Sequence record: PP180005
DNA: 53,846 nt
Reading direction: 5' to 3' (one strand)
Source: Escherichia phage mEp554
Part shown: positions 14,292 through 43,286 of the stretch, in pieces
How positions within the stretch are numbered: the first letter of the stretch is position 1
Layout of the letters: every line of letters begins with the position of its first letter
The notes under the pieces: model-generated
Told to the model about the DNA's origin: nothing
What the model saw: only the letters and a program-made list of their open reading frames with translations
Databases searched by the model: none
Translations under genes and position numbers: made by a program

Positions 14292-14352
14292 TGTGATTGC
14301 GATCACATAGCTATACATTTTGTACTGTGATCGCGAATCCGTTTTGTAAACT
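14292..14352 (+). promoter_or_regulatory. Composite regulatory region: CRP-type palindrome TGTGATTGCGATCACA (14292-14307), 12-mer variants (14315-14326, 14339-14350), -10 TAAACT (14347-14352)
   Basis: All 10 core positions of TGTGA-N6-TCACA are present. The palindrome centre lies about 60 bp upstream of the predicted start. Confidence 0.55.
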
Positions 14353-14387
14353 GAAAGCAAAAGGTTTACGGTACGGAGGGAAATAAG

Positions 14388-14606
14388 ATGGCCCGCGAAT
14401 TAATGCTTTATTGTGTTGAGGGTGGAGTAGGTCACGATGCCTACGTCGCTGGGAAAGGCTATCCAGCCGATGAAGTGCTTTCTAATATGCACTTCCGGGA
14501 AAATGAAAGCCGGGTGTCTGTGTGGAAACGGTGCGTTGATGGTATTGAGGTTGTAAGCATCGAACGGTATTTAGGCACGTTTGATTACGGTGTTATTGAG
14601 GCTTAA
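14388..14606 (+). CDS. Hypothetical protein (72 aa)
   Basis: SD GGAGGG upstream. Confidence 0.6.
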   Translation: MARELMLYCVEGGVGHDAYVAGKGYPADEVLSNMHFRENESRVSVWKRCVDGIEVVSIERYLGTFDYGVIEA

Positions 14607-14608
14607 TT

Positions 14609-14701
14609 ATGGACGACACATTGTTTTATATGTGCTGTTGCTGGGGTTTTATTGCCTTATGCCTGTTTATCAGGTGGTTTATTGAATACCATATGAGGTG
14701 A
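14609..14701 (+). CDS. 30-aa Cys-rich hydrophobic micro-ORF (MDDTLFYMCCCWGFIALCLFIRWFIEYHMR)
   Basis: Fills the gap between two ORFs on the same strand. No strong SD. Confidence 0.35.
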   Translation: MDDTLFYMCCCWGFIALCLFIRWFIEYHMR

Positions 14702-14704
14702 TAT

Positions 14705-14899
14705 ATGAAAAAGGTTGGCGGTTATACGTTGCCTGATAACGCTAAATTGGCGGGAATTGGTTTTAGCGGCTGTTATTACTACAACAATGTAGGCGATATT
14801 TATTGCGTGCGTTTTGTCGATGGTGTACAGCATTTTCGCAGACTACCAGACATTGAATTGAGTAAACTTATCCGTGAGGTGTCATTACATGCGGTTTAA
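14705..14899 (+). CDS. Hypothetical protein (64 aa), paralogue-like with the next gene
   Basis: SD GAGGTG. Shares the G.FSG.Y.Y motif with the ORF at 14889-15092. Confidence 0.55.
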   Translation: MKKVGGYTLPDNAKLAGIGFSGCYYYNNVGDIYCVRFVDGVQHFRRLPDIELSKLIREVSLHAV

Positions 14900-15092
14900 A
14901 CATTACAGAGAATGGAAGATTCCAGAATCAGCAACAAAGGCAGCGCCCGGAATATTTTCGGGCGTTTATTTTTATATGGAAGGTAAATGGTATTTCGGCA
15001 GCAGGCCGGATCACTATTATCAAGAAGTATGCAAATCTCACACATGGGACATTAAGGAGCGCGTGCAAGGCGGTGTAATAGACGAGGTTTAA
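14889..15092 (+). CDS. Hypothetical protein (67 aa)
   Basis: ATG 14889 with SD GAGGTG. Confidence 0.55.
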   Translation: MRFKHYREWKIPESATKAAPGIFSGVYFYMEGKWYFGSRPDHYYQEVCKSHTWDIKERVQGGVIDEV

Positions 15093-15093
15093 A

Positions 15094-15330
15094 ATGATTA
15101 ATGGTTTTTTAAGCTGGTTAAGAGTGTGGTTTTTTGCCACGCTTTTCGTTTTTTTGGCGTTCAGCGGTGTCATTGTCATATTTACGCTGGCGATGATGTT
15201 CATTACATGGTCAGTACCTGAATTTAACGACTTTGGAGCTATTATTGCCATCGCCCGCGCTTTATTGGCTGGTAGCGCATTTATTGGTTTTTGCTGGACT
15301 GTAGCGCCTGATTGGGGTGATGAATGGTGA
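15094..15330 (+). CDS. Membrane protein, 2-3 predicted TM segments (78 aa)
   Basis: SD GAGGT. Strongly hydrophobic sequence. Confidence 0.6.
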   Translation: MINGFLSWLRVWFFATLFVFLAFSGVIVIFTLAMMFITWSVPEFNDFGAIIAIARALLAGSAFIGFCWTVAPDWGDEW

Positions 15331-15334
15331 TCCT

Positions 15335-15568
15335 ATGGCTTTGTTCAATATGTCAGAACTGCAATTTAATGCCGTAAAAGCTGCCGCCCGCGCAGCGCTT
15401 TCTGCTTGCAAAGCTGAGGTAGAGAAAAACGGCTACAGCGATAAAGCCACGCGGCTGATATTAGATAAGCATTATCGCAAGGTCGCCCCGCTGATCAGCA
15501 TTGAGCGCTTTGTGTGGTTGGTGGGGTATTTAAACAACCGTTGGGGAACGGAACAGGATTATTTCTAA
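15335..15568 (+). CDS. Hypothetical protein (77 aa; ORF open from 15317)
   Basis: ATG 15335 preceded by GGTGA. Confidence 0.5.
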   Translation: MALFNMSELQFNAVKAAARAALSACKAEVEKNGYSDKATRLILDKHYRKVAPLISIERFVWLVGYLNNRWGTEQDYF

Positions 15569-15581
15569 GGGGGGGGGCGTA

Positions 15582-16121
15582 ATGAAAAATGATTACGGCG
15601 GCAGCCATACGCCGAAAGAAATAAAAGACCTATGGCAAACGCCAAAACCAGTTTTTAGAGGAATGGATCGAGAATTCGAATTCGTCGCTGATGTGGCGGC
15701 AAACAAGGCAAACGCGCTAGTTCCGCGATATATAACCGAAGAAATGGACACGTTGCATTATCCGTGGGGAGCGGTGGCAATGCCTGGTGAATATGTCTGG
15801 ATGAATCCGCCATACTCAAACCCTGGTCCATTCGTTGATAAAGCGGCGCTCGAACATCAACTGAATCACATTGGTTGCGTAATGCTGTTGCCCGCTGACA
15901 TTTCTGTTAGCTGGTTCATGAACGGCGCGGAGACGGCAAACGAATGCAGATTAATAACGCGCGGGCGGCTGGCGTTTATCAATGCTGCGACTGGTAAGCC
16001 AGTGAGCGGAAACAATAAAGGGAGCTTGTTTTTGATCTGGCATCCACGATGCAGACATGAATGTATTTTTACACACATAACACGTAAAGAGCTATACGCA
16101 AGAGGTGCAGATAATGACTAG
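15582..16121 (+). CDS. dam: Phage N6-adenine DNA methyltransferase (Dam-like)
   Basis: 179 aa. WQTP...D.AA...N and catalytic NPPY (WMNPPYSNP). Poly-G SD. Confidence 0.85.
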   Translation: MKNDYGGSHTPKEIKDLWQTPKPVFRGMDREFEFVADVAANKANALVPRYITEEMDTLHYPWGAVAMPGEYVWMNPPYSNPGPFVDKAALEHQLNHIGCVMLLPADISVSWFMNGAETANECRLITRGRLAFINAATGKPVSGNNKGSLFLIWHPRCRHECIFTHITRKELYARGADND

Positions 16122-16611
16122 TGCGGCAGATTTACTACGAATCGCAGCGGAAACAATTGAGCAAAGAGGTAAACAAAACGGATACGACAGAAAAGAGGAA
16201 AAATCGGCGCCAAAAATAGCCACTATATATAACGCTAAGAAGGGCGCAAATTTAACCCCGCTTGATGTATGGGATCTGTTGATTTGTCTCAAGGAGGCGC
16301 GTTTAGAGGCCATTTTGGCTAATGGTAGCGATCCTGCTGACACTTTGGTTGACCTAATCAGCTACAACGCACTAAAAGCTGAGCAAATATTGAATGATCG
16401 GGATGAAGAGTTAAAGAAAAATCAGTTCACTGCCGCCAATATTAGCGATGGAATAATAAAAGATGCAGCAATAACAAGCTGTAAGGGCTTACCCCCTTCA
16501 ATGCTTAATCCTCAATGCGGTTGCATTTCAACTCGGCTTGATTTGAGTTTTGACAGATCTGAAGCTATTCGCGATAAGAGGTATGACCCAAATGAAAAAG
16601 GTGACAATTGA
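16114..16611 (+). CDS. Hypothetical protein; N-terminal region resembles the phage DUF6378-type helical domain
   Basis: Start at ATG 16114 (SD GAGGTG). The pattern IEQRGKQNGYD...IATIYNAKKG.NLTPLDVWDLLICLKEAR is recalled, not searched. Confidence 0.45.
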   Translation: MTSAADLLRIAAETIEQRGKQNGYDRKEEKSAPKIATIYNAKKGANLTPLDVWDLLICLKEARLEAILANGSDPADTLVDLISYNALKAEQILNDRDEELKKNQFTAANISDGIIKDAAITSCKGLPPSMLNPQCGCISTRLDLSFDRSEAIRDKRYDPNEKGDN

Positions 16612-17095
16612 CAGGTTATTGGCCTGCGTTTATGTCGCCGTTTTCGTGATCATCAACCTTATTGTTAACCATTGCGGCCCGTGGGTAATTCCGATCACTA
16701 CGGTAGCCGCTGTGTGTGTCAATATGATGATCCGTGACTTCCTGTTATATGACGGCGGCTTGAAATGGTCGGCTACAACATGCGCCGCCGCTGGCGCAAT
16801 CACGGTGCTAATAAATTACGATGCAGGAATGGTAGCAATAGCGTCATTCGTCGCGGTTGTTTCCGGTGCGCTTATATCTGGCGGTGTTTACCGGGTTTTG
16901 CCTGGTGATTTCGATTCGAAACGCTGGCCTGCAAATATAGCTTCAGCCATCGGGGATGCGTTAATTTTCCCGACGCTATCGTTTATGGCGTTTATGCCGG
17001 AAATATCAGCGATGCAATTCATCTCAAAAATGGCAGCGGTGACGGTGATCACTATCATCATGCGCCGCTATTTCACGTTTGAGGGCAAAAAATGA
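16592..17095 (+). CDS. Polytopic membrane protein, possibly VUT/YhhQ (queuosine-precursor transporter) family
   Basis: 167 aa, 4-5 hydrophobic segments. GDALIFP and the overall pattern are reminiscent of DUF165/YhhQ. Assignment is tentative. Confidence 0.4.
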   Translation: MKKVTIDRLLACVYVAVFVIINLIVNHCGPWVIPITTVAAVCVNMMIRDFLLYDGGLKWSATTCAAAGAITVLINYDAGMVAIASFVAVVSGALISGGVYRVLPGDFDSKRWPANIASAIGDALIFPTLSFMAFMPEISAMQFISKMAAVTVITIIMRRYFTFEGKK

Positions 17096-17874
17096 GCAAG
17101 GCTAAACACTGGTTATATAATTGGCTAAGAAACTGGGTTGTGTGGTCGCTGTACGACGGCAGCGGGTACGCCGTTAAAGACTGGGCGGAAGCGGGATATA
17201 AGTGCTATTGCTTCAACTATGACGGCGCAAATCACGGCGATTATGAAGGCGTTAAAATCATTCATCCGAATATTGAATACGTTAACGTATGGATTGACAG
17301 TCACTTCCTGGTGATGTTCTCGCCTGACTTGTCAGTTTACCCAGAGCCTGACATTATCCTGGGCTTCCCGCCGTGCGACGATCTCGCCGTGTCTGGCGCT
17401 CGCTGGTTCGCTGACAAACGAAAAAAAGATCCTGACTTCCAGGTGAAGGCGGCGAATAGCGCAAAACTGGTAGAAAAACTGGCGGATATGCACAACGTGC
17501 CGTGGATGGTGGAAAATCCGGTGGGGGCACTGTCAACGCTATGGCGTAAACCGGATTTTATCTTCAATCCTTGCGCTTACGGTGGCTACCTGCCGGAAGA
17601 TGACAAACATCCTGCTTTCCCGGATGTTTACCCGGCGCGCGACGCGTATACAAAGAAAACTTGTATTTGGTGCGGTAACGGATTTAAGCAGCCGCTTTTC
17701 AGACCTGTAGATCTTAACTCTGGTGATAACCCGGGGTGGGCGAAAACAGGAGGCAGGACGAAACGAACAAAGATGATCCGCTCACTAACGCCGCGCGGCT
17801 TTGCCCGTGCTGTATTCCTGGCTAACGACCGGGCCATCAATCGTACTACGCTTAACCGTGTTTTGCCGGACTGA
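17092..17874 (+). CDS. Minimal C5-cytosine-methyltransferase-like protein
   Basis: 260 aa. Motif I-like SLYDGSGYA, motif IV-like GFPPCDDLAVSG (PC dipeptide), motif VI-like VENPVG, C-terminal TPRGFARAV. ATGA-coupled to the upstream membrane gene. Confidence 0.55.
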   Translation: MSKAKHWLYNWLRNWVVWSLYDGSGYAVKDWAEAGYKCYCFNYDGANHGDYEGVKIIHPNIEYVNVWIDSHFLVMFSPDLSVYPEPDIILGFPPCDDLAVSGARWFADKRKKDPDFQVKAANSAKLVEKLADMHNVPWMVENPVGALSTLWRKPDFIFNPCAYGGYLPEDDKHPAFPDVYPARDAYTKKTCIWCGNGFKQPLFRPVDLNSGDNPGWAKTGGRTKRTKMIRSLTPRGFARAVFLANDRAINRTTLNRVLPD

Positions 17875-17876
17875 AA

Positions 17877-17957
17877 TTTACAAAATGGCGTCATTGCGTG
17901 ATGCGGATCACATAATGGCGCTTTTTGTCTTGTTTGCATGTATCCATTTTGTATACT
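17877..17957 (+). promoter_or_regulatory. Composite regulatory region: TTTACAAAATGG (17877-17888), CRP-type palindrome CGTGATGCGGATCACA (17897-17912), promoter -35 TTGTTT (17930-17935), 16 nt, -10 TATACT (17952-17957) inside CCATTTTGTATA (17944-17955)
   Basis: Read directly from sequence. The palindrome centre lies about 60 bp upstream of the predicted start. Flanking 8-bp inverted repeat TTGTTTGC / GCAAACAA. Confidence 0.55.
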
Positions 17958-18033
17958 TCAAGCAAACAAAATGCTCTTTAAAAATCCGGCAGCGCTGAAA
18001 TGCGTAGAAATCACCTGAAAAGGAGAGAGCATT

Positions 18034-18210
18034 ATGCCTTTTGATAATTACCAATGGCATGACGACTATGAACGAGAGAGCGTTATGCGTGCAATGTGCA
18101 ATGTATGCAGCACGAAGAGAGGAGGCTGTAACGAGTGCAACGAATGCTTAGAACATTGGCTAAGGGCCGGACACGCCGAAAGGCTGAACGAAACAGAGAA
18201 TCAAAAATAA
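18034..18210 (+). CDS. 58-aa Cys-rich micro-ORF (MPFDNYQWHDDYERESVMRAMCNVCSTKRGGCNECNECLEHWLRAGHAERLNETENQK)
   Basis: Strong SD AAGGAGAG. CxxC-N6-CxxCxxC pattern. Below the ORF-track cutoff. Confidence 0.6.
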   Translation: MPFDNYQWHDDYERESVMRAMCNVCSTKRGGCNECNECLEHWLRAGHAERLNETENQK

Positions 18211-18224
18211 TCGGGGTGGTTTTT

Positions 18225-18830: not shown

Positions 18831-19234
18831 ACGAATATACATTTAGCCTACCTTACCCGCCATCGAATAATCGCTATTACCGACATTCGCGCGGTTTTCA
18901 CTATATCAGCAAAGTGGGGAAGGAATACAGGGAACAAGTAAGAGACATCATTGAGCTATTAAATTTAAATATTAACCTGCCTTGCCGACTGGCAATTGCA
19001 ATTTACGCCGCGCCGCCGGATAACCGGATCAGAGATCTGGATAATATCCCTAAATGCCTTTTTGATAGCCTTACTTATGCCGGATTCTGGATGGATGACG
19101 GGCAAATTGACTCAATAAAAATTGTCCGCTGCCGGAAGATAAAAGGCGGACGCTTGTTTATTAAGATCCGCGAACGCGGCGACCTACTACCGGATATTGA
19201 CGAATACGCGACTAATATGTGGGGTGAGCAATGA
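18827..19234 (+). CDS. rusA: RusA-family Holliday junction resolvase
   Basis: 135 aa. LPYPPSNNRYY...RDLDN..K...D.L....W.DD.QI signature. Confidence 0.85.
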   Translation: MNEYTFSLPYPPSNNRYYRHSRGFHYISKVGKEYREQVRDIIELLNLNINLPCRLAIAIYAAPPDNRIRDLDNIPKCLFDSLTYAGFWMDDGQIDSIKIVRCRKIKGGRLFIKIRERGDLLPDIDEYATNMWGEQ

Positions 19235-19413
19235 AAAACGAAATTAAAGATCTGCAAATAGATATTCAGCGCGATGAGCATGATTTAGCTACAGTCCGAC
19301 AAATCCAGGCTTTCCACATGAGAGAACTGCTTGCGCTGAAAGAGCTTGAAAGAAAGTTGGTCCAATCAATATCTGATCGTAAACGTCTGGTTGCTCGTTA
19401 CGGGGGCAAATAA
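19231..19413 (+). CDS. Hypothetical coiled-coil protein (60 aa)
   Basis: ATGA coupling at both ends. Confidence 0.55.
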   Translation: MKNEIKDLQIDIQRDEHDLATVRQIQAFHMRELLALKELERKLVQSISDRKRLVARYGGK

Positions 19414-20135
19414 TGAATCTGGAATCAATTCTTAAATTCCACTTCCCAAAATCACCGCGTTTGTCAGATGAAAGCCGGGGCACGTCCCCGGATGCGCTTA
19501 ATACTACTGATGCACTAACTGCCGCAGGTATGGCGCAATCGCGCGTAGAGCTTGGTTATAGCGCTTTTTTGGGGAAGATGGAACTATCACAAGCCGAAAA
19601 GCATAAGGCCGTAGTTTTGCTTATAGAGCGTTTAAGGGCTATGGCAAAAGACTATGAATACGTTATGGAACTGGACGAGGCCAAACGCAATGATCTCATT
19701 ATTCTTGTTGCCGTTTTCGCATTTCGGGATTATTGCCAGAGTGCCGCGACGGAAAAAACTTGTATGGAGTGCGGCGGATATAAATTTACGTTTGACGAAT
19801 ACGGGGAAAAACACCTTTGTAAAAAATGCAAGGGGCATGGGACAGTTCGCAATCATTGTAAACAATGCAAGGGCCGTGGCGAAGTACCGGATAAAGCAGC
19901 CAGCGAAGCGGCGGAAATGCCAGTGTTCAAAACGTGCCAGCGCTGCGGCGGGCGCGGGTACTCGCGTTTCCCTGTAGATCTTGTCCGGCAGGCGGTTAAT
20001 CAGCTTGTTTTTCCGGTAAGCCGATCAACATGGTGGAAGAAATACCGGGCTTTCTATGAAGACGCCATTGCCGAATTGTTCAAAGAAGAGGCGCGGGCTG
20101 ACAACGAAATTAAACGAGTGACGCGGGGTGAATGA
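19413..20135 (+). CDS. Q-like late antiterminator (zinc-ribbon CxxCxGxG repeats)
   Basis: 240 aa. Position after ninG-rusA. Four CxxCxG(x)G motifs (CMECGGYK, CKKCKGHG, CKQCKGRG, CQRCGGRG). Family recalled as the phage-82-type antiterminator. Confidence 0.6.
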   Translation: MNLESILKFHFPKSPRLSDESRGTSPDALNTTDALTAAGMAQSRVELGYSAFLGKMELSQAEKHKAVVLLIERLRAMAKDYEYVMELDEAKRNDLIILVAVFAFRDYCQSAATEKTCMECGGYKFTFDEYGEKHLCKKCKGHGTVRNHCKQCKGRGEVPDKAASEAAEMPVFKTCQRCGGRGYSRFPVDLVRQAVNQLVFPVSRSTWWKKYRAFYEDAIAELFKEEARADNEIKRVTRGE

Positions 20136-22534: not shown

Positions 22535-22571
22535 TTGCGTCATAATGTTGATTTTAATGAATAAATAAAAA

Positions 22572-22633
22572 TGTGATCTTTATCACAATGTATACAAAAT
22601 GGCATTGTTTCGGCAGTGCCGTTTTGTTATATA
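22572..22633 (+). promoter_or_regulatory. Composite regulatory region: CRP-type palindrome TGTGATCTTTATCACA (22572-22587), 12-mer TATACAAAATGG (22591-22602), promoter -35 TTGTTT (22605-22610), 17 nt, extended -10 TGtTATATA (22625-22633)
   Basis: Perfect TGTGA-N6-TCACA core. Its centre lies about 60 bp upstream of the predicted start. Confidence 0.6.
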
Positions 22634-22666
22634 TAAGTCACTGAAAGACGAATGGAAGGTAAGAAG

Positions 22667-22792
22667 ATGAACGCTAACGCTAAATATCCGGCATGGGTCT
22701 TTGAACTATACGCCCGCTACTTTGAATTGCTGGCACCAGGTGAAGAAGCATTAAGCATTGACGAATACGCTGAGTGTTTAGGGTTCAAATGA
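22667..22792 (+). CDS. 41-aa micro-ORF (MNANAKYPAWVFELYARYFELLAPGEEALSIDEYAECLGFK)
   Basis: SD GGAAGG. First ORF after the promoter. Confidence 0.5.
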   Translation: MNANAKYPAWVFELYARYFELLAPGEEALSIDEYAECLGFK

Positions 22793-22820
22793 GACAAAGA
22801 AGAATAAAACACGGGGCCGG

Positions 22821-23150
22821 ATGGCCCAATCAAACCAGAAGGTTGCAATCATGAAAAGCGATAAGTTCATAGCGTGCTGTTTTGTTGAAGTGCCTAAAGG
22901 TGATGTTTTCTGCAATTATGAATTTAAAGACAGTTTAGGCCGATCTCATGTTGTTGTTGGTAAGCGGGGCGATTGGTTATATATAACAGACGACGACATG
23001 ATTTTTACCAGAAATCAACTATTTCACATCAACTCATTAAATAATTATGCGCCAGTTGCCGCTATATCCATGATGGATCTTAAATCTAATATGTGGCTTG
23101 AAAAGGACACTGTGCATAAAGCGCGTAGCTTACCTAGTGCGGAGTTTTAA
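22821..23150 (+). CDS. Hypothetical protein (109 aa; alternative start ATG 22851)
   Basis: ORF track. Both candidate starts have purine-rich SDs. Confidence 0.55.
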   Translation: MAQSNQKVAIMKSDKFIACCFVEVPKGDVFCNYEFKDSLGRSHVVVGKRGDWLYITDDDMIFTRNQLFHINSLNNYAPVAAISMMDLKSNMWLEKDTVHKARSLPSAEF

Positions 23151-23152
23151 TT

Positions 23153-23407
23153 ATGGTTGTGATCAGACTATGGCGCGGTAATAGCCGATTTGATGGTAAA
23201 TATATCCGCGTAATTGAAGATGTTAATCGTGGTCGGTTTTATGAATTGGTATACAGCGAAAAAAGGGAGAAAGAATATCTGAACGAATCGATCCCTATGT
23301 GGCGTAAAGTGGCTGGCCTTGCCTTAATTCTGCGCCGCGGGTTTTATACAGATCACAACACACTAACAGATGCGGAACTAGTGACAATTCTTTACAAAGG
23401 AGAATAA
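23153..23407 (+). CDS. Hypothetical protein (84 aa)
   Basis: SD GGAG. Confidence 0.55.
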   Translation: MVVIRLWRGNSRFDGKYIRVIEDVNRGRFYELVYSEKREKEYLNESIPMWRKVAGLALILRRGFYTDHNTLTDAELVTILYKGE

Positions 23408-23410
23408 CAA

Positions 23411-23734
23411 ATGTCTAAATTTATCAGCGTTAATGTTTTCCGTGGCAATTTTCCAGAAGATAAAGAAATTGGACAATTCGCAGGTGAACGTGGCGTATGT
23501 TTCCGTGTAGCTACTGAAGACGATGCGCACGTTAAATGCTTTCACGTATCTGAACCGCCTTTTAATGCAGACCATCTTGAAGACCTGAATAGAATTAAAA
23601 GCCTTATTTTTGCCTATCTGGCGTTCCCTGGCATAGCTGATGCTGATGTGGAATTGGTTGGGGCCGAACTGGTGGCAGAATACAAAATGACTGAAGGCGA
23701 AAACGGAGGGGTGGAAATTGAGCGCATCAAATAA
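23411..23734 (+). CDS. Hypothetical protein (107 aa)
   Basis: SD AGGAGA. Confidence 0.6.
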   Translation: MSKFISVNVFRGNFPEDKEIGQFAGERGVCFRVATEDDAHVKCFHVSEPPFNADHLEDLNRIKSLIFAYLAFPGIADADVELVGAELVAEYKMTEGENGGVEIERIK

Positions 23735-23972
23735 ACCTTACAAAATCCGTTGTAAAGGCGAATATCCTGGTTTTACGATTGGTTGCGAATACATGGGCCA
23801 CATTGGGTACGGCCCTTTCGGTGAATTAGGAATGAATACGCTGGACGACGACGGCGACAGCAGGACGCTTGATCTCGATTCTGATGATTTCGAATACATC
23901 CCGCCAGTGACTTGCCGCGTCGTTGATGAGTTCCTGGCTGAACATGAAGACGATGAGGATGATTATGATTGA
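23718..23972 (+). CDS. Hypothetical acidic protein (84 aa, TTG start)
   Basis: Strong SD GGAGGGGTGG before TTG 23718. Confidence 0.5.
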   Translation: MSASNKPYKIRCKGEYPGFTIGCEYMGHIGYGPFGELGMNTLDDDGDSRTLDLDSDDFEYIPPVTCRVVDEFLAEHEDDEDDYD

Positions 23973-24159
23973 ATGCCTTATTGCTGTGACTGTTTTGCTT
24001 TATATCGCTGGCGCGATCTTGATGTCATGTTTTATTAAGGTTAGTGAGGCTGACCGTTGCGGATTTGAGATCCCTTTTTGGCCTGTATTGGTTTTTCTCG
24101 CTTTCTTTGATGCTACGGTAGTGCAGATCAAACAAGCTATTAAGGAGCGCAAAAAATGA
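23965..24159 (+). CDS. Membrane protein, 2 TM (64 aa)
   Basis: ATG 23965 after GAGGATG. Hydrophobic sequence. Confidence 0.55.
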   Translation: MIECLIAVTVLLYIAGAILMSCFIKVSEADRCGFEIPFWPVLVFLAFFDATVVQIKQAIKERKK

Positions 24160-24338
24160 TTGAAGACGGCATCTATGGTGTAAACCAGATGGAAAACGTT
24201 TTTTACATGGTTGACGGCGATACCGTAACAATCAGCGTAGATGGTGGGGAATACGCAGAGCCATTCTTCAAAACAACAAGGGAAGACATTAAGCGAAGCG
24301 TTGATAAAGGCATACTATTTAAGGTTGGCGAGCTATGA
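24156..24338 (+). CDS. Hypothetical protein (60 aa), tandem paralogue of the next ORF
   Basis: SD AGGAG. IEDGIY...VFYMVDGDTVTI. Confidence 0.55.
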   Translation: MIEDGIYGVNQMENVFYMVDGDTVTISVDGGEYAEPFFKTTREDIKRSVDKGILFKVGEL

Positions 24339-24511
24339 ACGAGATCGAAGACGGCATCTATTTGCACATGTTATTTAACATCGCCTATTTGGTTAAAGGT
24401 GATAAGGTGATGATTCAGAATCCAGAAAGTAAATGCTGGGAATCAAGCATGATGGATCGTTGGCACATGCAAATGCTACTTGATAATAACCTGATATACA
24501 GAAAGCAGTAA
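24335..24511 (+). CDS. Hypothetical protein (58 aa), tandem paralogue of the previous ORF
   Basis: ATGA coupling. IEDGIY...IAYLVKGDKVMI. 15-nt identity gaagacggcatctat with the upstream copy. Confidence 0.5.
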   Translation: MNEIEDGIYLHMLFNIAYLVKGDKVMIQNPESKCWESSMMDRWHMQMLLDNNLIYRKQ

Positions 24512-24519
24512 AGCCGTAT

Positions 24520-24561
24520 TTGTGGCTCGAAAACAAACGGATTAAAATATTACCTAACAAT
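24520..24561 (+). promoter_or_regulatory. Candidate late promoter (pR-prime-like): -35 TTGTGG (24520-24525), 17 nt, -10 TAAAAT (24543-24548), -10-like AACAAT at about +1 to +6 (24556-24561)
   Basis: Hexamers read directly. The downstream -10-like element resembles the sigma-dependent pause element of lambdoid late promoters (recalled). Confidence 0.5.
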
Positions 24562-24575
24562 GCGAAACTGTAACT

Positions 24576-24598
24576 ACCCGGCCCCGTGCCGGGTTTTT
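24576..24598 (+). terminator. Rho-independent terminator immediately upstream of the holin (tR-prime-like)
   Basis: ACCCGGC-CCCGT-GCCGGGT followed by TTTT. Confidence 0.75.
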
Positions 24599-24618
24599 GC
24601 TTTGTTGGAGGTAAATCT

Positions 24619-35478: not shown

Positions 35479-35480
35479 TT

Positions 35481-36869: not shown

Positions 36870-36881
36870 AAGGTGACAACT

Positions 36882-37562
36882 ATGATTCACGTTCGAACAG
36901 GACAGTTTGCGGTTGTGGTTGATGGCAGACGTTACGAATTTAATCCCTGCTTTGCTGCAATGGCTAAGATCGGCAGTGACAGGGAACTGGTCGAATATTT
37001 CGCAACGGTTCACGGCGGCAGATACCCACGACGTTTGCCAATGGATACAGACCTCCGCAATCGCATTCTGGCGCGTTGTTATGGTGGACTGGTGCAAACG
37101 TCCATCCACATATTGAAATGTTGCTCAGAATGCGAAATAGGCCAGTTATTGGGCGAATGTAGCTTTACTCCTTCGGGTAAGTTGAGACTGAAACCTGGAT
37201 TGATGCCCACCAGCGACGTTATCACACTTGCGCAGCACTGCATGTTTCACGGTTTAATTGGTGACGGTCCAGAAGAAGACACGGGCGAAAACCAGGATGG
37301 CGAGTACAAGCCCACATTCGACATCCTTGAGTATGTTTATTCTGCCGTTGCTCACCTGGGATTGTCTGAGTCTGAAGCGTGGGGCATGACAATGACCGGA
37401 TACAGGGCCGCAGTACGCGCTAAAACGCCGCCAGACGAAAGAAACGAGAAACGTAAGCCAAACGTTCAGATAAATAAACGTGATTATGATGAGCAAATGG
37501 AGGCCGCTAAGAGGGTGCTGGAATTGATGAAAAAACGCGAGCAAGAAAAAGCCCGGAATTAA
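36882..37562 (+). CDS. Tail assembly chaperone (single 226-aa ORF; no separate G/GT pair seen)
   Basis: ATG 36882 (SD GGTGA). Lies between the tube and tape measure genes. SESEAWGMTMTGYRA motif is typical of tail assembly chaperones (recalled). Confidence 0.55.
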   Translation: MIHVRTGQFAVVVDGRRYEFNPCFAAMAKIGSDRELVEYFATVHGGRYPRRLPMDTDLRNRILARCYGGLVQTSIHILKCCSECEIGQLLGECSFTPSGKLRLKPGLMPTSDVITLAQHCMFHGLIGDGPEEDTGENQDGEYKPTFDILEYVYSAVAHLGLSESEAWGMTMTGYRAAVRAKTPPDERNEKRKPNVQINKRDYDEQMEAAKRVLELMKKREQEKARN

Positions 37563-37568
37563 CCGGGC
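37551..37568. terminator. Bidirectional hairpin terminator
   Basis: GCCCGG-AATTAA-CCGGGC with T-rich runs on both sides. Separates convergent genes. Confidence 0.65.
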
Positions 37569-37576
37569 CTTTATCT

Positions 37577-37891
37577 TTACTTGTATGCTGCGAATCGGCA
37601 TCTTGCTTCATCCAGGTCATGAACATCGTACACGTTATCGTAAATGTAAGTTGCTACCTGTGCTTTCTGTACGTCAGTTGCGTTCGGGAACTCCATGCTT
37701 ACGAAAGTCACTGCATCAACGTAGTGTTTGAACATCTTTTTGTTAACGCACAGTGCGTAAATCAATACGGCAGGCCAGCAAATCAGCGCGCCAAAGAATG
37801 CCATGAGCATATTCAGATGTTTTTTCTGAGCTACAACCATAGTTGCGACGAATCCGATGAAGCAAATTACCAGTTCCATGATGCACCCCAT
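37577..37891 (-). CDS. Moron membrane protein, 2 TM plus soluble C-terminal domain (100-104 aa)
   Basis: ORF track. Alternative start ATG 37879 (SD GGGGTG). Confidence 0.6.
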   Translation of the reverse strand: MGCIMELVICFIGFVATMVVAQKKHLNMLMAFFGALICWPAVLIYALCVNKKMFKHYVDAVTFVSMEFPNATDVQKAQVATYIYDNVYDVHDLDEARCRFAAYK

Positions 37892-37998: not shown

Positions 37999-38011
37999 TT
38001 ACCCGCCACGC

Positions 38012-38098: not shown

Positions 38099-38176
38099 TT
38101 TCTTATCCTCTTTTGCTTCCTCCGGTTAATCCGGCCTTCTAAATCCCTTTACTCTATCCCTTTCCTTTAGCCTCTT

Positions 38177-38236
38177 TATACAAAATGTATTCGTTGAAGT
38201 GAAGCCATTTTGTATAAAATAGAGATCAGGATCACA
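38177..38236. promoter_or_regulatory. Divergent regulatory region: inverted pair TATACAAAATGT (38177-38188) / CCATTTTGTATA (38205-38216), -10-like TATAAA (38213-38218), degenerate palindrome AGAGATCAGGATCACA (38221-38236)
   Basis: Read directly. Lies between the minus-strand moron cassette and the tape measure gene. Confidence 0.5.
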
Positions 38237-38255
38237 CTTTTTACGAGGTTAAATC

Positions 38256-40604
38256 ATGGCTACCAGTTTAGGTACAATTTATTACGAAGTTGATGCAAAA
38301 ACTGGTCAACTTCTAGTCGCTCAGAGACAGGCGGACCAGGCTTTTGACAGTATCGAGCGTGGCGCAAAACGCGCTGACCGCCAGGTGAACACGCTTAAGA
38401 CTTCAATCAAAGCACTATCCAGGGTCATTCATCTGTTACTTGCTGCGGAGGCTGTGCGCCAGTTTATTGACATGGCGGAGCAAGCAAAAATGCTTCGCGT
38501 AAAAATCAAATTGCTTACAGGTGAAGCGGAGGCAACGGAACGCGTTTTCAACAGACTGAAAGAAATATCAAAAGAAACAGGGCAAAGCCTCAAGGATACT
38601 GGCGACCTGTGGCAAGGGCTTGCTATATCGCTAAAAAACACATCCGCTACTGAAGGCCAGGTCCTCAACCTGGTTAGCACGCTGCAAAAACTCGGCAACC
38701 TGGGCGGCGTGTCTGCGGAACAACTATCAAACTCCATGCGCCAGTTCCGCCAGGCTATTGATGCTGGCGTGTTGCAGGCTGAAGAATTTAACTCAATCCG
38801 TGACAACACCCCAACAATCATACAGGAAATGGCACGCCAAATGGGGTTGTCTATGGGGCAGTTCCGCGCTGAAATGCTGGACGGCAAGATCACGGCTGAA
38901 AGGATGCTCAACGCGATCCAGGCCGCCACGCAGGAAACGAACGAGAAGTTCGCACAGTTGCCGCGCACATCCGGCATGGCCTTCAACGAGCTTAAAGTTG
39001 AGGTTATGGGACTTGTCGAACAGCTAGACGATCTTTTCGGCATATCAGATGGCGTTGTGTCGGCAATAGACTTAATCACTGGTGGCGTTGAGGGATTAGG
39101 TAAAGGCGCAAAATTCGCCGCAACATGTTTCAATACACTAAAAACGGCTGGCAGCGAATTTATCGACATGTTTGATGATGTTGCTGTTAAGGCTGGCGAG
39201 GTGGCGGAAGAGATTATCAGGATGGTAACGCCAATCAAGGCGCTAATGGATGGCTACAAATGGATGAAGGAAATCATTGACAAGCGCAAGGAAGAGCTAA
39301 ATAGCAACAACGAGAAGAAATTTGGCCCTACAGTTGGTAAGGTCATGACGTTTGCAAACGACATTAAAAACGCAACTGCCGCCTATGATGAGTTCATGGA
39401 GAAACAGGGTGAGGCTGACGATGGTAAGATCACGGGATTCGATCAGCCAGTTGGTAAACCGAAAAAAGGTAAAAAGGGCAAAAAAGACAAGAAATCTGAA
39501 GCTGATCGGCTTGGTGATGAAGGTATAAAAGTCTCTGACCAGTACAACAAAGACGCCGCCGCTATGCGTAAAGCACTGGAGAACGGCAAGGCCATTGACG
39601 CCGCATTTGCCCAGGGAAAAATAACCCTCCTTGAGTACAAGGCCGCGCAGAAAGGTATAGGCAAGGAACTGAAGGACGAATTGGCGCAAATCCCTGTTGA
39701 TGAGCTACGCGACAAATGGGACCACATAGTTAGCCCAATGGACCAGCTTAAGGGCGAAATTGACCCAATCAAACAGGCGCAAAATGAATGGGCCGTAAGA
39801 AAGCAAATGCTATTGGACCTGGGCGCTACAGAGGCGCAACAGAGACAGGCGCAATTGGAATACGAACAACAGATCCGGGATCTGAAGTGGGAGCAATGGC
39901 AGGCGCAAAGCGAAACAAACGGACTGATCGGCGCTTGCGTCAGCGGCCTGAAAGGTGGCATGGGCAATGCCCTTACAGGACTGTTAAACGGTACTCAATC
40001 ATTAAGCGAGGTTTTTGCCAACCTGGGAAGTAGCATACTTAACACCGTTGGCAACAAACTATCAGAAATTGCCGCTAACTGGATAGCAGATCAGTTAATG
40101 ATGGAAACACAAAGCAAGGCCACGCAAGCAAGTACCACGGCAGGCGCGGTAGCGGCACAAGGCCAGATTGCAGCGGCGGCGGCCCCGGCAGCGGCGGCTA
40201 CGGCTGCGTCAACTGGTGGTAGCTGGGCGGCGGCTGGTGCTGCGGCGCTTTCTGCGATCATGTCGCTGGCAACGTCAATCTTTGGTGGCGGGCGTTATAA
40301 TGGTGGTTCTGTTAATGGTGGTAGCCTGTATCGAGTAGGGGAACACGGAATACCTGAGCTATTCCAGACGAGCAACGGGCGTCAGTATATGATTCCTGGC
40401 GAAAATGGTAGGGTAATTCCTGGCCGCGATCTCTTCAATGGTGGCGGCATCAATATGCCTGTGCAAATCACAGTTCAGACCACAAACGGATTTAGCGACG
40501 AAGATAGCCGCAGACTTGAGCAGACGATGGAGCGCGTAGCAATGAAAATGATGGCAAGGGAATCGCAACGACCGGGAGGAATGTTGCAACCGCGCCGCAA
40601 ATAA
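38256..40604 (+). CDS. Tail tape measure protein
   Basis: 782 aa, helical and Ala-rich with a Gly/Ala-rich hydrophobic segment near the C-terminus. Position in the tail module. Confidence 0.85.
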   Translation: MATSLGTIYYEVDAKTGQLLVAQRQADQAFDSIERGAKRADRQVNTLKTSIKALSRVIHLLLAAEAVRQFIDMAEQAKMLRVKIKLLTGEAEATERVFNRLKEISKETGQSLKDTGDLWQGLAISLKNTSATEGQVLNLVSTLQKLGNLGGVSAEQLSNSMRQFRQAIDAGVLQAEEFNSIRDNTPTIIQEMARQMGLSMGQFRAEMLDGKITAERMLNAIQAATQETNEKFAQLPRTSGMAFNELKVEVMGLVEQLDDLFGISDGVVSAIDLITGGVEGLGKGAKFAATCFNTLKTAGSEFIDMFDDVAVKAGEVAEEIIRMVTPIKALMDGYKWMKEIIDKRKEELNSNNEKKFGPTVGKVMTFANDIKNATAAYDEFMEKQGEADDGKITGFDQPVGKPKKGKKGKKDKKSEADRLGDEGIKVSDQYNKDAAAMRKALENGKAIDAAFAQGKITLLEYKAAQKGIGKELKDELAQIPVDELRDKWDHIVSPMDQLKGEIDPIKQAQNEWAVRKQMLLDLGATEAQQRQAQLEYEQQIRDLKWEQWQAQSETNGLIGACVSGLKGGMGNALTGLLNGTQSLSEVFANLGSSILNTVGNKLSEIAANWIADQLMMETQSKATQASTTAGAVAAQGQIAAAAAPAAAATAASTGGSWAAAGAAALSAIMSLATSIFGGGRYNGGSVNGGSLYRVGEHGIPELFQTSNGRQYMIPGENGRVIPGRDLFNGGGINMPVQITVQTTNGFSDEDSRRLEQTMERVAMKMMARESQRPGGMLQPRRK

Positions 40605-40608
40605 ACAA

Positions 40609-40638
40609 AACCCCGGTACAATGCCGGGGTTATCTTTT
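40609..40638. terminator. Bidirectional rho-independent terminator
   Basis: AACCCCGG-TACAATG-CCGGGGTT with T-rich flanks on both strands. Confidence 0.8.
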
Positions 40639-40813
40639 AGTTATTCTCAAATCTTGTATATCCTCTCTCAATTTTCCCTCCGTGTACACTTCTGGCAAAT
40701 ACCGCGTCAGTATACCTGAAAAATGGACATGTATATGTATCCCCTTTGCTATCCATATATTTTAGCACCCATGCCATACGTTTTACATTGCTTTTATTTG
40801 CCGGGTTTTTCAT
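40637..40813 (-). CDS. 58-aa micro-ORF (MKNPANKSNVKRMAWVLKYMDSKGDTYTCPFFRYTDAVFARSVHGGKIERGYTRFENN)
   Basis: Consensus SD GGAGG. Last gene of the moron operon. Confidence 0.55.
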   Translation of the reverse strand: MKNPANKSNVKRMAWVLKYMDSKGDTYTCPFFRYTDAVFARSVHGGKIERGYTRFENN

Positions 40814-40831
40814 TTTATTTTCCTCCGCAAA

Positions 40832-40924
40832 TCACAACCTGCCGTTTCTTGCTATGTAGCTGCGAGCAAACATCACCTGCCAGATGTTCCAGATCTCCCG
40901 CCACGTAAATTCATCATCTTCCAT
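40832..40924 (-). CDS. 30-aa micro-ORF (MEDDEFTWREIWNIWQVMFARSYIARNGRL)
   Basis: Overlaps the upstream ORF end by 11 nt. Weak evidence. Confidence 0.3.
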   Translation of the reverse strand: MEDDEFTWREIWNIWQVMFARSYIARNGRL

Positions 40925-41063
40925 ATCTCACACCATCGCGCTTGTATGGTTCGCCATCAGCAAACGGGATTAACTCATCGTTTGCCACCATTCGATTGAA
41001 CCAGTCTTTCAGAGCAACCAGGGAGAACCGGATCCCGTAACTGTGCAATTCGCGCCACCTCAT
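40914..41063 (-). CDS. 49-aa micro-ORF (MRWRELHSYGIRFSLVALKDWFNRMVANDELIPFADGEPYKRDGVRYGR)
   Basis: ATGA overlap with the stop of the 84-aa gene. Confidence 0.45.
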   Translation of the reverse strand: MRWRELHSYGIRFSLVALKDWFNRMVANDELIPFADGEPYKRDGVRYGR

Positions 41064-41314
41064 TTATGTGCCCCTTTCACTCCACAATGTCGGTTGTATT
41101 CAAGGTGGTCAATAATTAGCCAAACCTTCAAATCTTCACTGAACAGCCGCCAATCAGGGTTTATGTCCATCTTGTAACCGTAACCATCGCGTAACTTTTT
41201 GGGGTAAACCTCTTTTTTAAGAAAAGCATCAAGTAATTGTTTTCCTTTCTTGATGATCCGTTCTTGGGCGTTTTTCTGTGCTTTCAGGTTTTTGCCAATC
41301 ATTACCAATTTCAT
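41060..41314 (-). CDS. 84-aa protein, possibly a RelE/YoeB-superfamily toxin fold
   Basis: ORF track. Loose resemblance to YoeB/RelE (RIIKKGKQLLDAFLKK ... WRLFSEDLKVWLIIDHLEYNRH). Not verified. Confidence 0.6.
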   Translation of the reverse strand: MKLVMIGKNLKAQKNAQERIIKKGKQLLDAFLKKEVYPKKLRDGYGYKMDINPDWRLFSEDLKVWLIIDHLEYNRHCGVKGAHK

Positions 41315-41334
41315 AACTCACCCCACGCAATCAA

Positions 41335-41490
41335 TCAGTTGACCACTTTCAGGAAGAAATCACGGTATTCATCTTCTTTTGCATTCATCATGAATTGACC
41401 GTATTTGAACGCATCATCAAAACCCTTCACAATCGCAACTTCCACCTGTTCGAATGCTTTGTTTAGCATTACCACTACATAGCGTTCCAT
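41335..41490 (-). CDS. 51-aa protein (MERYVVVMLNKAFEQVEVAIVKGFDDAFKYGQFMMNAKEDEYRDFFLKVVN), first gene of the moron operon
   Basis: ATG 41490 with SD AAGGGGG. The ORF-track version (to 41661) lacks an SD. Confidence 0.5.
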   Translation of the reverse strand: MERYVVVMLNKAFEQVEVAIVKGFDDAFKYGQFMMNAKEDEYRDFFLKVVN

Positions 41491-41561
41491 ATTGGCCCCC
41501 TTTGTTGGTACTGCTTTCTCTTCTTGCTTTCTGTATACATCTTGTTGCGTCCTGTGTGAAG

Positions 41562-41584
41562 CCATTTCGTAAACTGGGTATAAT
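41562..41584 (+). promoter_or_regulatory. Candidate promoter for the distal tail genes: 12-mer variant CCATTTCGTAAA (41562-41573) with -10 options TAAACT (41570-41575) or TATAAT (41579-41584)
   Basis: Read directly. GTGAAGCCATTT is shared with the tape-measure upstream region. Confidence 0.45.
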
Positions 41585-41659
41585 TCTTGTGACGAAGTTC
41601 TCATTTTTCGCGTAGAAGCGCGTAAAGATGTATGCAATATGTAACTTATAGGGGGAATC

Positions 41660-42013
41660 ATGCCGGAAGTTTTCAGATGGACGCCGCAAAGAAGCTACAG
41701 CGTGACCAGGGAACCAAATGTGTCGGTCGTTAAACTTGGTGATGGTTATGAACAGCGCCAGGCGAAAGGGATTAACACGTTGCTTGATAGCTACACCCTG
41801 GTTTTTAAAGGCAGTAGCGCAGGATGCGGTGATAGTGGGAACGTGGCGATCCAGGCAGAAGCATTCTTGAGGGCGCGCGGCGCTGTCGAGGCTTTTTACT
41901 GGTCGCCGTCTATGGATGGTGTGCAAAGGCTTTTTGTTTGCCGTAGCTGGAGTATGACAAAGGACGGGCCTGTATACACGCTAAACGCAACATTTGAGCA
42001 AGTTGTTGGCTAG
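41660..42013 (+). CDS. Minor tail protein M (lambda gpM-like)
   Basis: 117 aa. FRW.P......P.V..V.LGDGY.QR ... ends FEQVV, as I recall for lambda M. Confidence 0.8.
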   Translation: MPEVFRWTPQRSYSVTREPNVSVVKLGDGYEQRQAKGINTLLDSYTLVFKGSSAGCGDSGNVAIQAEAFLRARGAVEAFYWSPSMDGVQRLFVCRSWSMTKDGPVYTLNATFEQVVG

Positions 42014-42024
42014 TGGGGGTTAAT

Positions 42025-42210
42025 ATGTACGGGACTTGTGTAGTTGACAAAACTGACGCATTTACATTATTTGACGACTATGAGATCAACGACCTTACTG
42101 TAAAGGCTGACAATGGCGATACATGGTATCTTCATGATGTTGGTGACGGGTATGTGGGATGCAGATCCAGGGAAGGCAAGGAGGTTTTATTTTTGGTTGA
42201 TGGCGTGTAA
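42025..42210 (+). CDS. Hypothetical protein (61 aa)
   Basis: ATG 42025 after GGGGG. Confidence 0.5.
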   Translation: MYGTCVVDKTDAFTLFDDYEINDLTVKADNGDTWYLHDVGDGYVGCRSREGKEVLFLVDGV

Positions 42211-42214
42211 TAAC

Positions 42215-42240
42215 AACCCCGCTTCGTGCGGGGTTTTCTT
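42215..42240 (+). terminator. Rho-independent terminator (one of two near-identical copies)
   Basis: AACCCCGC-TTCGT-GCGGGGTT followed by TTCTT. Near-duplicate at 50718-50745. Confidence 0.8.
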
Positions 42241-42241
42241 G

Positions 42242-42379
42242 TTAGTAGTGAATATACAGCAAACTCATTGGGTGAGCGTGCGCCATATTATTGGCTATCG
42301 CCGCCCAGTCCCAATCTGCAGCATGAGCGCCAAATACTATCAGTCCCATTATTATTAGCGCCAAAACTTCTATTTTCAT
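42242..42379 (-). CDS. 45-aa secreted micro-protein (signal peptide MKIEVLALIIMGLIVFGAHA, then ADWDWAAIANNMAHAHPMSLLYIHY)
   Basis: SD GGTGA. AxA cleavage motif. Confidence 0.5.
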   Translation of the reverse strand: MKIEVLALIIMGLIVFGAHAADWDWAAIANNMAHAHPMSLLYIHY

Positions 42380-42389
42380 AATCTGTCAC

Positions 42390-42638
42390 CTATAAGTTAT
42401 CACGCAGATAATTAACGCCCTTATCAGTGACGAATGAATGATTAACCTGGTTTTCATCCGTCATAATGATGAATAACTTTTCTTGTAGGTACTTAGCTTT
42501 CGGGTACAACGTTAAACAAACCTGATACAAAATCCCGCGCTCAATCAGCAAATCAATAAATTCGTGTTCATGATAACCGATGATGCGGGCGGCCTGTTTC
42601 AACGTGTACACATAATCACCGTGATTGCGCCGCCCCAT
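42390..42638 (-). CDS. 82-aa KilAC-like DNA-binding domain protein
   Basis: ORF track. YTLKQAARIIG...F..LL.ERGILY...P...Y...LF...T.KG..YL pattern recalled for KilAC. Confidence 0.5.
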   Translation of the reverse strand: MGRRNHGDYVYTLKQAARIIGYHEHEFIDLLIERGILYQVCLTLYPKAKYLQEKLFIIMTDENQVNHSFVTDKGVNYLRDNL

Positions 42639-42647
42639 GCTGCCGCC

Positions 42648-42998
42648 TTATTTATCGAATGCGCTCAGGTTATCGATGCAGAAGTCTTTCGCAGCTTTTT
42701 CGTATTCGCGTTTTGCTTGCGGATTGTCTGCCGGGAAACCTTTTGCGTGTATTTCACCAGGGCAAGCCTGATCCATAGAATCTGCAAAGTTAACATTGGC
42801 GTTGAAGTTAATATCTTTCGGGTTCATCTCTTCCACCTTATCCGGCACTTGTACAGGAATAACATAATAATCACGAGCATTAGACCAACAGCGGAGCAAT
42901 TCGCAACCTTCATTGCGCGCTGATTCGAATGTGTCAAATAGTCCCATGCTTTCCCATTCACATTTATCAGTCCACACGTCTAATCTGTATTTTTTCAT
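42648..42998 (-). CDS. Hypothetical moron protein (116 aa)
   Basis: ORF track. Confidence 0.55.
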   Translation of the reverse strand: MKKYRLDVWTDKCEWESMGLFDTFESARNEGCELLRCWSNARDYYVIPVQVPDKVEEMNPKDINFNANVNFADSMDQACPGEIHAKGFPADNPQAKREYEKAAKDFCIDNLSAFDK

Positions 42999-43170
42999 TT
43001 TTTGCTACAACCTCCCATTTGACAGGTTCGATCCTGTACCCCAAAACGCGTTCGTCTTCAGCGAGTAAGAGCGCGTCGGTAAGTGCCTCGCCTTCATCTT
43101 TATACAGGGCCACAGTCATTTTCCTGCCATCCGCAAGGAACACCGTCAACCTCCACACCTTATCATCCAT
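42967..43170 (-). CDS. Hypothetical moron protein (67 aa from ATG 43170)
   Basis: SD GGAGGTG 5 nt upstream of ATG 43170. The ORF track extends to 43245. Confidence 0.5.
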   Translation of the reverse strand: MDDKVWRLTVFLADGRKMTVALYKDEGEALTDALLLAEDERVLGYRIEPVKWEVVAKNEKIQIRRVD

Positions 43171-43184
43171 TTCACACCTCCGCG

Positions 43185-43286
43185 CCATTTTGTTAATCAT
43201 GCTTCCTTTTGAGTACAATATACATACTGTAAAAAACGCGATCAACCGTTTTGGTATGATTTAGCGTGATGGCGATCACAAAATGA
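43185..43286. promoter_or_regulatory. Divergent regulatory region: CCATTTTGTTAA (43185-43196); minus-strand promoter (-10 TATATT 43217-43222, -35 TTGATC 43240-43245); CRP-type palindrome CGTGATGGCGATCACA (43265-43280) merging into ATCACAAAATGA
   Basis: Near-consensus hexamers with a 17-nt spacer on the minus strand. The palindrome centre lies about 61-62 bp upstream of that promoter's predicted start. Confidence 0.55.

Follow-up and report, generated by a model that had tools for sequence, protein, structure and literature searches.

Near-consensus CRP-type boxes upstream of a predicted promoter family in Escherichia phage mEp554 and related mEpimmI phages

Which protein, if any, reads a set of palindromes that recur between the genes of Escherichia phage mEp554 and closely match the binding site of the host regulator CRP in complex with cyclic AMP (cAMP)? 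The question arises from a stretch of 53,846 nucleotides (nt; sequence record PP180005), referred to in the following as the window, in which an earlier inspection of the letters alone, here termed the sequence-only reading, had pointed out four such boxes and proposed that they place several phage operons under cAMP-CRP control. The window (about 54 kb) represents a temperate coliphage of the mEpimmI (mEp021-like) group and is complete or nearly so. According to the analysis summarised here, the boxes are probably high-affinity sites for host cAMP-CRP, situated at class I activating positions upstream of a family of sigma-70 promoters, and the reading best supported by the sequences is that of CRP-type boxes in a predicted class I arrangement, serving a family of five to seven promoters.

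The four 16-mers are found exactly where they had been placed, namely box 1, TGTGATTGCGATCACA, at 14292..14307, box 2, CGTGATGCGGATCACA, at 17897..17912, box 3, TGTGATCTTTATCACA, at 22572..22587, and box 4, CGTGATGGCGATCACA, at 43265..43280. All of them fit the pattern YGTGA-N6-TCACA, as had been claimed, and the six strand matches to this pattern in the window correspond to these four sites; dinucleotide-preserving shuffles give an expectation of 0.22, and six matches were reached in none of 100 shuffles. The pattern GTGAT-N4-ATCAC has 4 matches in the window versus 0.03 expected. At two sites the core agrees with that of the 22-bp CRP site, TGTGA-N6-TCACA, at 10/10 positions and at the other two at 9/10, and the bases critical for CRP, G5, G7, C16 and C18, are all present in each of the four boxes. 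The intergenic location attributed to them holds as well: the boxes occupy the gaps 14289-14387, 17875-18033 and 22535-22667 between open reading frames (ORFs) and the divergent gap 43167-43298.

For a quantitative comparison, a symmetrised weight matrix was derived from E. coli CRP sites supported by electrophoretic mobility shift assays, 22 of the 23 in PredCRP Table S1 being used (PMC5772556). Scanning the window with this matrix against shuffled controls, the check that the sequence-only reading had recommended, ranks the four boxes 1, 2, 3 and 5 at about 17-20 bits: 18.2-18.6 bits for box 1, 16.8-17.0 bits for box 2, 19.7-20.5 bits for box 3, which is the top score of the window, and 16.9-17.5 bits for box 4. 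On the same scale, the lac site scores 18.4 bits and the median of the training sites is 16.3 bits. Positions of at least 15 bits number six in the window versus 0.27 in shuffles; sites of this strength occur about once per 10 kb in mEpimmI loci, and 467 kb of lambda-like phage DNA, scanned as a control, contain none. The four boxes thus score like genuine E. coli CRP sites and match them in sequence. In addition, the matrix reveals three further sites with a similar layout, at 38221, 41588 and 9113.

The arrangement of the boxes relative to the promoters is equally regular. The -10 elements named by the sequence-only reading all exist, i.e. TAAACT at 14347-14352, TATACT at 17952-17957, TG-T-TATATA at 22625-22633 and, on the minus strand, TATATT at 43222..43217. 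They belong to the predicted plus-strand promoters P1 (14312..14352; A/T-rich element TATACATTTTGTA and a weak -35), P2 (17930..18006 together with nutR2; TTGTTT and a spacer of 16 base pairs (bp)) and P3 (22591..22633; element TATACAAAATGGC, -35 TTGTTT at 22605-22610, a 17-bp spacer and an extended -10) and to the minus-strand promoter PmC (43217..43258; element CATACCAAAACGG, -35 TTGATC at 43245..43240 and a 17-bp spacer). With the start set 7 nt after -10 hexamers that were picked by eye, the predicted box centres lie at -59.5 for P1, -59.5 for P2, -60.5 for P3 and -62.5 for PmC, in line with the 59.5-62.5 bp that had been asserted, and at -60.5 and -70.5 for the sites at 38221 and 41588. 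CRP activates from -61.5, -71.5, -82.5 and -92.5, the first two being established for class I, and the spacing requirement is loosened by an UP element adjoining the CRP site or by an extended -10 (PMC4132738). Genome-wide, CRP motifs cluster at -41.5, -61.5 and -93.5 (PMC5957442).

At sites 1-3 the layout is identical, consisting of the 16-mer, 34 bp, TTTTG and then the -10 (TAAACT, TATACT or T-TATATA). Alignment of sites 1-4 and the further promoters yields a common architecture of box, A/T-rich element of about 13 bp, -35, spacer of 16-17 bp, and -10 behind a T-tract and TG. The A/T-rich element reads TATACAAAATGGC at P3 and also at the minus-strand promoter PmA, CATACCAAAACGG at PmC, TTTACGAAATGGC at the minus-strand promoter PmB and TATACATTTTGTA at P1. 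P1-P3 combine good -10 regions with weak -35 hexamers and were missed by a simple two-hexamer scan; PmA-PmC have -35 matches of 4-5/6, and PmC is detected by a promoter scan with 9/12 matches. A 12-13 bp element, TATACAAAATGG(C), stands directly 5' of the -35 of PR and several CRP-box promoters (9913-9924, 22591-22603, 38204-38216, 41561-41573 and 43246-43258) and is similar to a UP-element subsite of the proximal kind. For CRTTTTGK, a related 8-mer, the window has 31 occurrences versus 14.7 expected.

Conservation was followed through a comparative set of about 45 related IMG/VR contigs and three GenBank phages. At sites 2 and 4 the GTGA and TCAC arms are intact in 45/45 loci, and the central bases vary freely. 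Site 1 retains GTGA-N6-TCAC in 28 of 47 related loci. The module of site 3 is present in 29 loci; its left half, TGTGATCT, is nearly invariant among relatives, and its right-half TCACA is kept in 12 of the 29 (about 40%), most of the remaining relatives (L001, L005, L006, L010 and others; about half of the relatives) having TCGCA or CCGCA instead. A TCGCA half-site is typically seen in CRP-S sites, which depend on Sxy. At 38221 all of 34 distinct sequences have the same right half, GATCACA, and at 41588 the pattern TGAGA-N6-TCACA is largely conserved in 39. Taking sites 2, 3, 4, 38221 and 41588, the ten core positions have an identity of 0.87-1.00 and the central six one of 0.74-0.79, at or below the regional mean. 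Conserved half-sites around a variable centre are the pattern to be expected if a dimeric DNA-binding protein reads both half-sites.

The distance between box and promoter is maintained no less strictly, since, of 63 distinct module sequences, 62 have a gap of 34 bp from box to TTTTG and the last has one of 33 bp; at site 2 the sequence within this gap is variable while its length stays. Relatives whose site 1 has lost a critical G or C mostly also have the -10 TAAACT changed to TAAGCC. Because box loss and -10 loss mostly coincide, this suggests that box and promoter of site 1 work as one unit, an argument weakened by shared ancestry. Matrix scores, contrasting conservation of arms and centre, fixed spacing and three extra sites of similar geometry all support the control by cAMP-CRP predicted in the sequence-only reading, which is strengthened by the agreement of the comparative data across some 45 relatives.

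Two of the extra sites are associated with minus-strand promoters of accessory cassettes, as is box 4. The box at 38221..38236, AGAGATCAGGATCACA (16.3-17.1 bits), precedes PmA (38175..38216; -35 TTCACT at 38203..38198, 17-bp spacer, -10 TATAAA at 38180..38175), which heads the minus-strand cassette 37891..37254. The weaker box at 41588..41603, TGTGACGAAGTTCTCA (13.0-13.2 bits), lies about one helical turn further out than the other boxes and precedes PmB (41532..41573; -35 TTCACA at 41560..41555, 17-bp spacer, -10 TATACA at 41537..41532), the head of a cassette with a ParE-like toxin. PmC leads into a cassette that extends from about 43166 to 42390 and includes a KilAC-domain protein, so that the fourth box does head a minus-strand moron cassette, as had been proposed. 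Morons are accessory genes equipped with a promoter and a terminator of their own; some of them answer to host regulators, as stx1 does to Fur. This organisation was found in the three minus-strand cassettes (37254-37891, 40637-41491 and 42390-43166), which are interspersed between plus-strand tail genes and flanked by terminators, and likewise in the P1 unit, where one promoter is followed by two ORFs and the terminator 14942-14966. The ParE-like gene itself (PF24732; minus strand, region 41060-41491) is accompanied by a small upstream ORF that probably begins at 41491, and the pair is probably a toxin-antitoxin cassette, antisense between the tape-measure and minor tail genes. A plus-strand promoter, on which the boxes would then act as repressing sites, was also considered for CCGTTTTGGTATGAT beside site 4 and for the corresponding stretches at 38205 and 41560. 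More probably, these stretches are the A/T-rich element that separates box and -35 in the minus-strand promoters, read as its reverse complement; the same element occupies the same place at P3 and at the early promoter PR.

The third extra site concerns the immunity region. A possible further box, TGTGACTTGCATCAAA, at 9113..9128 (15.9-16.1 bits) is located 60.5 bp upstream of PL, the early promoter predicted for leftward transcription (minus strand, -10 at 9072..9067; TTGATC, 16-bp spacer, TAAACT), which reads into nutL. It is conserved, as is the whole surrounding region, and overlaps the start predicted for the promoter of the repressor gene itself (TTAACA-17-TACATT, 9083-9111). The 9113 box may be a repressor operator instead of a CRP box, because it has CTTGCATCA in common with the palindrome CTTGCATCATTGCAAG at 9031-9046. 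The plus-strand early promoter PR (9926-9954; TTGACT-17-TATATT) has TATACAAAATGG at 9913-9924 just upstream of its -35 and carries an A/T tract where the other promoters of this layout carry the box; neither in the window nor in the relatives is a GTGA-N6-TCAC-type sequence present at PR.

Any assignment to CRP has to be weighed against other explanations. A phage-encoded protein could read GTGA-N6-TCAC and control the promoter family as a middle or accessory activator or repressor, in which case the likeness to CRP would be convergent or coincidental. Such a regulator could hide among the many small early proteins without a recognisable family, and phage repressors do read ATCAC-type half-sites, as the lambda repressor does at its operators. 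The module with exact spacing is, moreover, confined to the mEpimmI group, with about 90 IMG/VR matches in mEpimmI-type contigs and only 4 unrelated ones, a distribution from which no decision for a host factor or a phage factor follows. No candidate protein emerged, however: the window encodes neither a CRP nor an FNR homologue, a tblastn search with the CRP of E. coli giving only chance matches there (E at least 3.6), and no new regulator came to light when 26 different proteins from the neighbourhood were scanned with Pfam and PHROGs. The immunity repressor and the Cro-like protein are unlikely binders because PR is devoid of a box, and a role of the boxes as their operators was rejected on this ground and on account of the different word, CTTGCATCA, that the immunity region repeats. 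Furthermore, the conserved positions, G5, G7, C16 and C18 within TGTGA/TCACA and a free centre, are exactly those of CRP, the scores are as high as those of genuine CRP sites, and CRP, which no host cell lacks, can be expected on sites so close to the consensus regardless of any other binder. A phage regulator is regarded as unlikely.

Still more improbable is a role of the palindromes as nucleic-acid structure, be it RNA hairpin, terminator or cruciform, in place of a protein site. It draws on site 2, where box 2 forms the tip of a 49-nt inverted repeat (17880..17928, plus strand) that is preceded by an A-tract, followed by a T-tract and predicted to be an intrinsic terminator in both directions; as RNA it folds into a 21-bp stem at -24 kcal/mol (z = -5.4) followed by UUUUUGU. 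This hairpin overlaps TERM_4 of the mEp021 record MH706966, and terminator t4 is listed as predicted only (PMC11893012). The features of an intrinsic terminator were found here alone, whereas for sites 1, 3, 4 and 38221 the folding energies (-4 to -5 kcal/mol, z between -1.3 and +0.1) are like those of shuffles and no T-run follows the stem. Termination cannot account for the box family, because the same type of 16-mer recurs without hairpin or T-tract, and such a role was rejected for the sites as a whole, only site 2 folding better than shuffles. Even at site 2, the first base of the box is T or C and the final A shows no compensating change in 36 distinct sequences, so the arms are conserved beyond their ability to pair, and the half-sites at 38221 and 41588 are conserved although these boxes are not self-complementary. 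Alternatively, the boxes might be inherited parts of a promoter cassette spread by duplication and by recombination at mosaic junctions, with little or no regulatory effect and with recent ancestry as the source of their conservation. The modules are clearly paralogous and lie at the edges of gene blocks that vary; upstream of site 3 the flanking sequence is completely different from one relative to another, some of the matches in E. coli prophages start just before the site 2 module, and sites 1 and 3 decay in many relatives. Inheritance alone nevertheless fits poorly with arms that are more conserved than their surroundings and centres that are less so, with a spacing kept while the intervening sequence diverges, and with sites 2 and 4 intact in every locus from many metagenomes and isolates; it is considered improbable.

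Several observations tell against recognition by CRP itself and temper its assignment. The starts derive from the choice of -10 elements by eye, the positions may err by 1-3 bp, and -59.5 is two bases off the optimum. Sites 1 and 3 are degraded in many relatives and hence not essential. The surroundings of sites 2, 4 and 9113 are conserved overall (0.93-0.94), which limits the resolution of the footprint, and the conservation of site 2 may partly reflect the terminator hairpin that box 2 caps. As the modules are paralogous, their common spacing does not amount to seven independent observations. Lastly, CRP, palindromes and promoters go unmentioned in the mEpimmI genome paper (PMC11893012), and the missing mention of CRP counts against its involvement.

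What is directly observed are the boxes themselves, how enriched and how conserved they are, and their constant spacing. If host cAMP-CRP is the protein that reads the boxes, a mechanism can be outlined in which we infer CRP binding, transcript starts, activation and the link to the N-like protein Gp17 from the sequences. When glucose is scarce, cAMP-CRP would bind the boxes and recruit polymerase to promoters that are poor on their own, the -35 hexamers of P1-P3 being weak. P1, PmA, PmB and PmC would express accessory cassettes, likely also from the prophage; P2 would start about 9 nt before nutR2, and Gp17 could render its transcripts resistant to termination, thereby feeding ninG-rusA-Q; and P3 would drive the block of small ORFs upstream of the lysis genes.

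The genes concerned fit into a plan that can be read from annotated relatives, in which the integrase is followed by a leftward replication operon, the repressor gene, a rightward early operon, and lysis, head and tail genes. The rightward early operon comprises Gp17, erf, ssb, numerous small ORFs, dam, dcm, ninG, rusA and Q. P1 heads two small ORFs, 14388-14606 and 14705-14899, in front of the strong terminator 14942-14966, a unit whose counterpart in mEp021 is gp26-gp27-TERM_3.

At P2, nutR2 (17972..18006, plus strand) follows directly, its boxA TGCTCTTTAAAAA beginning at 17972, about +9 from the predicted start, and from the P2 -10 to the end of nutR2 hardly any change is seen among 36 distinct sequences. 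Downstream, P2 leads to a ninF-like ORF, a weak terminator, ninG, rusA and Q (PF03589). Antitermination by Gp17 acts at nutR1, nutR2 and nutL, and nutR2 is located downstream of the cytosine methyltransferase gene (PMC11893012). nutR2 closely resembles nutL, boxA GCTCTTTAAAAA followed by a hairpin being present in both, and all three nut sites stand shortly downstream of a predicted promoter, at about +35 from PR, +9 from P2 and +73 from PL. The corresponding promoter-nut spans are 9926-10035 for PR-nutR1, 17952-18006 for P2-nutR2 and 8950-9072 for PL-nutL, which suggests that the phage may possess three promoter-nut pairs rather than two operons plus a spare nut site. In this arrangement nutR2 would serve transcripts initiated at P2, which would explain the third nut site of the group.

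P3 heads a small-ORF block of about 1.9 kb (22668-24511) that stops before a candidate late promoter and a terminator ahead of the holin gene. Within 24460-24602, the candidate Q-dependent late promoter, TTGGCA-16-GATAAT, has a strong terminator (24576-24602) some 90 nt downstream, immediately ahead of the holin gene, which resembles the PR'-tR' arrangement of lambda; the Q gene (19413-20135, PF03589) lies 4.3 kb upstream of it, with small ORFs between. As this is the better candidate, the idea that site 3 is a Q-dependent late promoter was set aside. A conserved sigma-54-like GG-N10-GC sequence within P3, TGGCATTGTTTCGGCA (22600-22615), most likely arises incidentally from the inverted repeat AAATGGCA...TGCCGTTT on either side of the -35.

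Two regions outside the promoter family deserve mention. A minus-strand lipoprotein gene at 50744-50992, with a signal peptide and an LTGC lipobox, is probably of the superinfection-exclusion Lpp type described for the mEpimmI group; upstream of it lies a degenerate half-site, TGCAACAAAGATCACA (51107-51122, 7.8 bits), and the expected distance from it shows no clear -10. On the minus strand at 5339 and 6476, near-identical stretches of the form CATTTTGT(A/T)AAC(C/T)GGAGG..AACATG directly precede the helicase gene and the gene upstream of it, and these look like U-rich translation-initiation regions, not promoters.

Viewed beside known systems, the phage promoters resemble class I promoters of E. 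coli such as lacP1, where CRP binds at -61.5, in their TGTGA-N6-TCACA core with G5, G7, C16 and C18, in a box that is centred some 60 bp, and in a single case some 70 bp, upstream of the predicted start, in a weak -35, and in the A/T-rich DNA between box and -35 where the alpha subunit's C-terminal domain would dock. Unlike lacP1, their predicted centres mostly lie at -59.5 to -60.5 and the action of CRP is predicted from sequence; unlike chromosomal class I promoters in general, they reside in a phage genome, form a paralogous set of five to seven, and have boxes nearer to the consensus than most chromosomal sites. The units headed by P1, PmA, PmB and PmC are moron-like in that each comprises between one and three small ORFs with terminators at its borders; three of the units run antisense within the tail cluster. 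They differ from known morons in that a single host regulator is predicted for all cassettes and, in addition, for two promoters inside the early rightward unit. The nut sites, in turn, recall antitermination of the lambda N type as described for Gp17 of mEp021, and the predicted CRP-box promoter immediately upstream of nutR2, behind a terminator hairpin, goes beyond that description (PMC11893012). The same DNA as site 2 is annotated as TERM_4/t4 in mEp021 (MH706966), where the palindrome, with its stable hairpin, is treated as a terminator only. CRP boxes and CRP-dependent promoters are already well known as a kind of element. A literature search on CRP sites in temperate phages or morons returned nothing relevant and no published mention of the mEpimmI boxes, so that their presence in this group and their link to nutR2 and the accessory cassettes appear to be unreported within the literature searched.

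The mEpimmI coliphages are common in the human gut. mEp554 is about 91% identical to mEp010 (PP180001), mEp021 (MH706966) and mEp515 over the 6 kb compared, and prophages of this kind were found in 35 of 5,426 complete E. coli genomes. In a collection of Nus-dependent coliphages obtained from human faeces, roughly every second phage belonged to the mEpimmI group (PMC11893012).

As modules, the predicted CRP-dependent promoters are compact (about 75 bp), portable and of defined architecture. Should the prediction prove false, the boxes would mark a phage regulator that mimics the specificity of CRP, which would be the more surprising outcome. A bolder and doubtful extension, although still conceivable from the arrangement of the boxes, is that mEpimmI phages are globally gated by catabolite status, with cAMP-CRP directly controlling PL, the internal promoter coupled to nutR2 and every accessory cassette. 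The leftward early promoter would then feed nutL, the Cro-like gene and the replication genes, and the internal promoter would feed Q, so that the carbon status of the host would set both the expression of prophage cargo and lytic progress. It is an old observation that mutations in cya and crp alter lysogeny; global gating would provide a direct mechanism for such effects and would account for the third nut site of the group. If the CRP prediction is true, a single sugar-sensing host regulator would switch on most accessory genes of the prophage and also drive the internal promoter that leads to the late-gene activator Q, and the behaviour of these prophages in the gut would be tied to diet-dependent cAMP levels.

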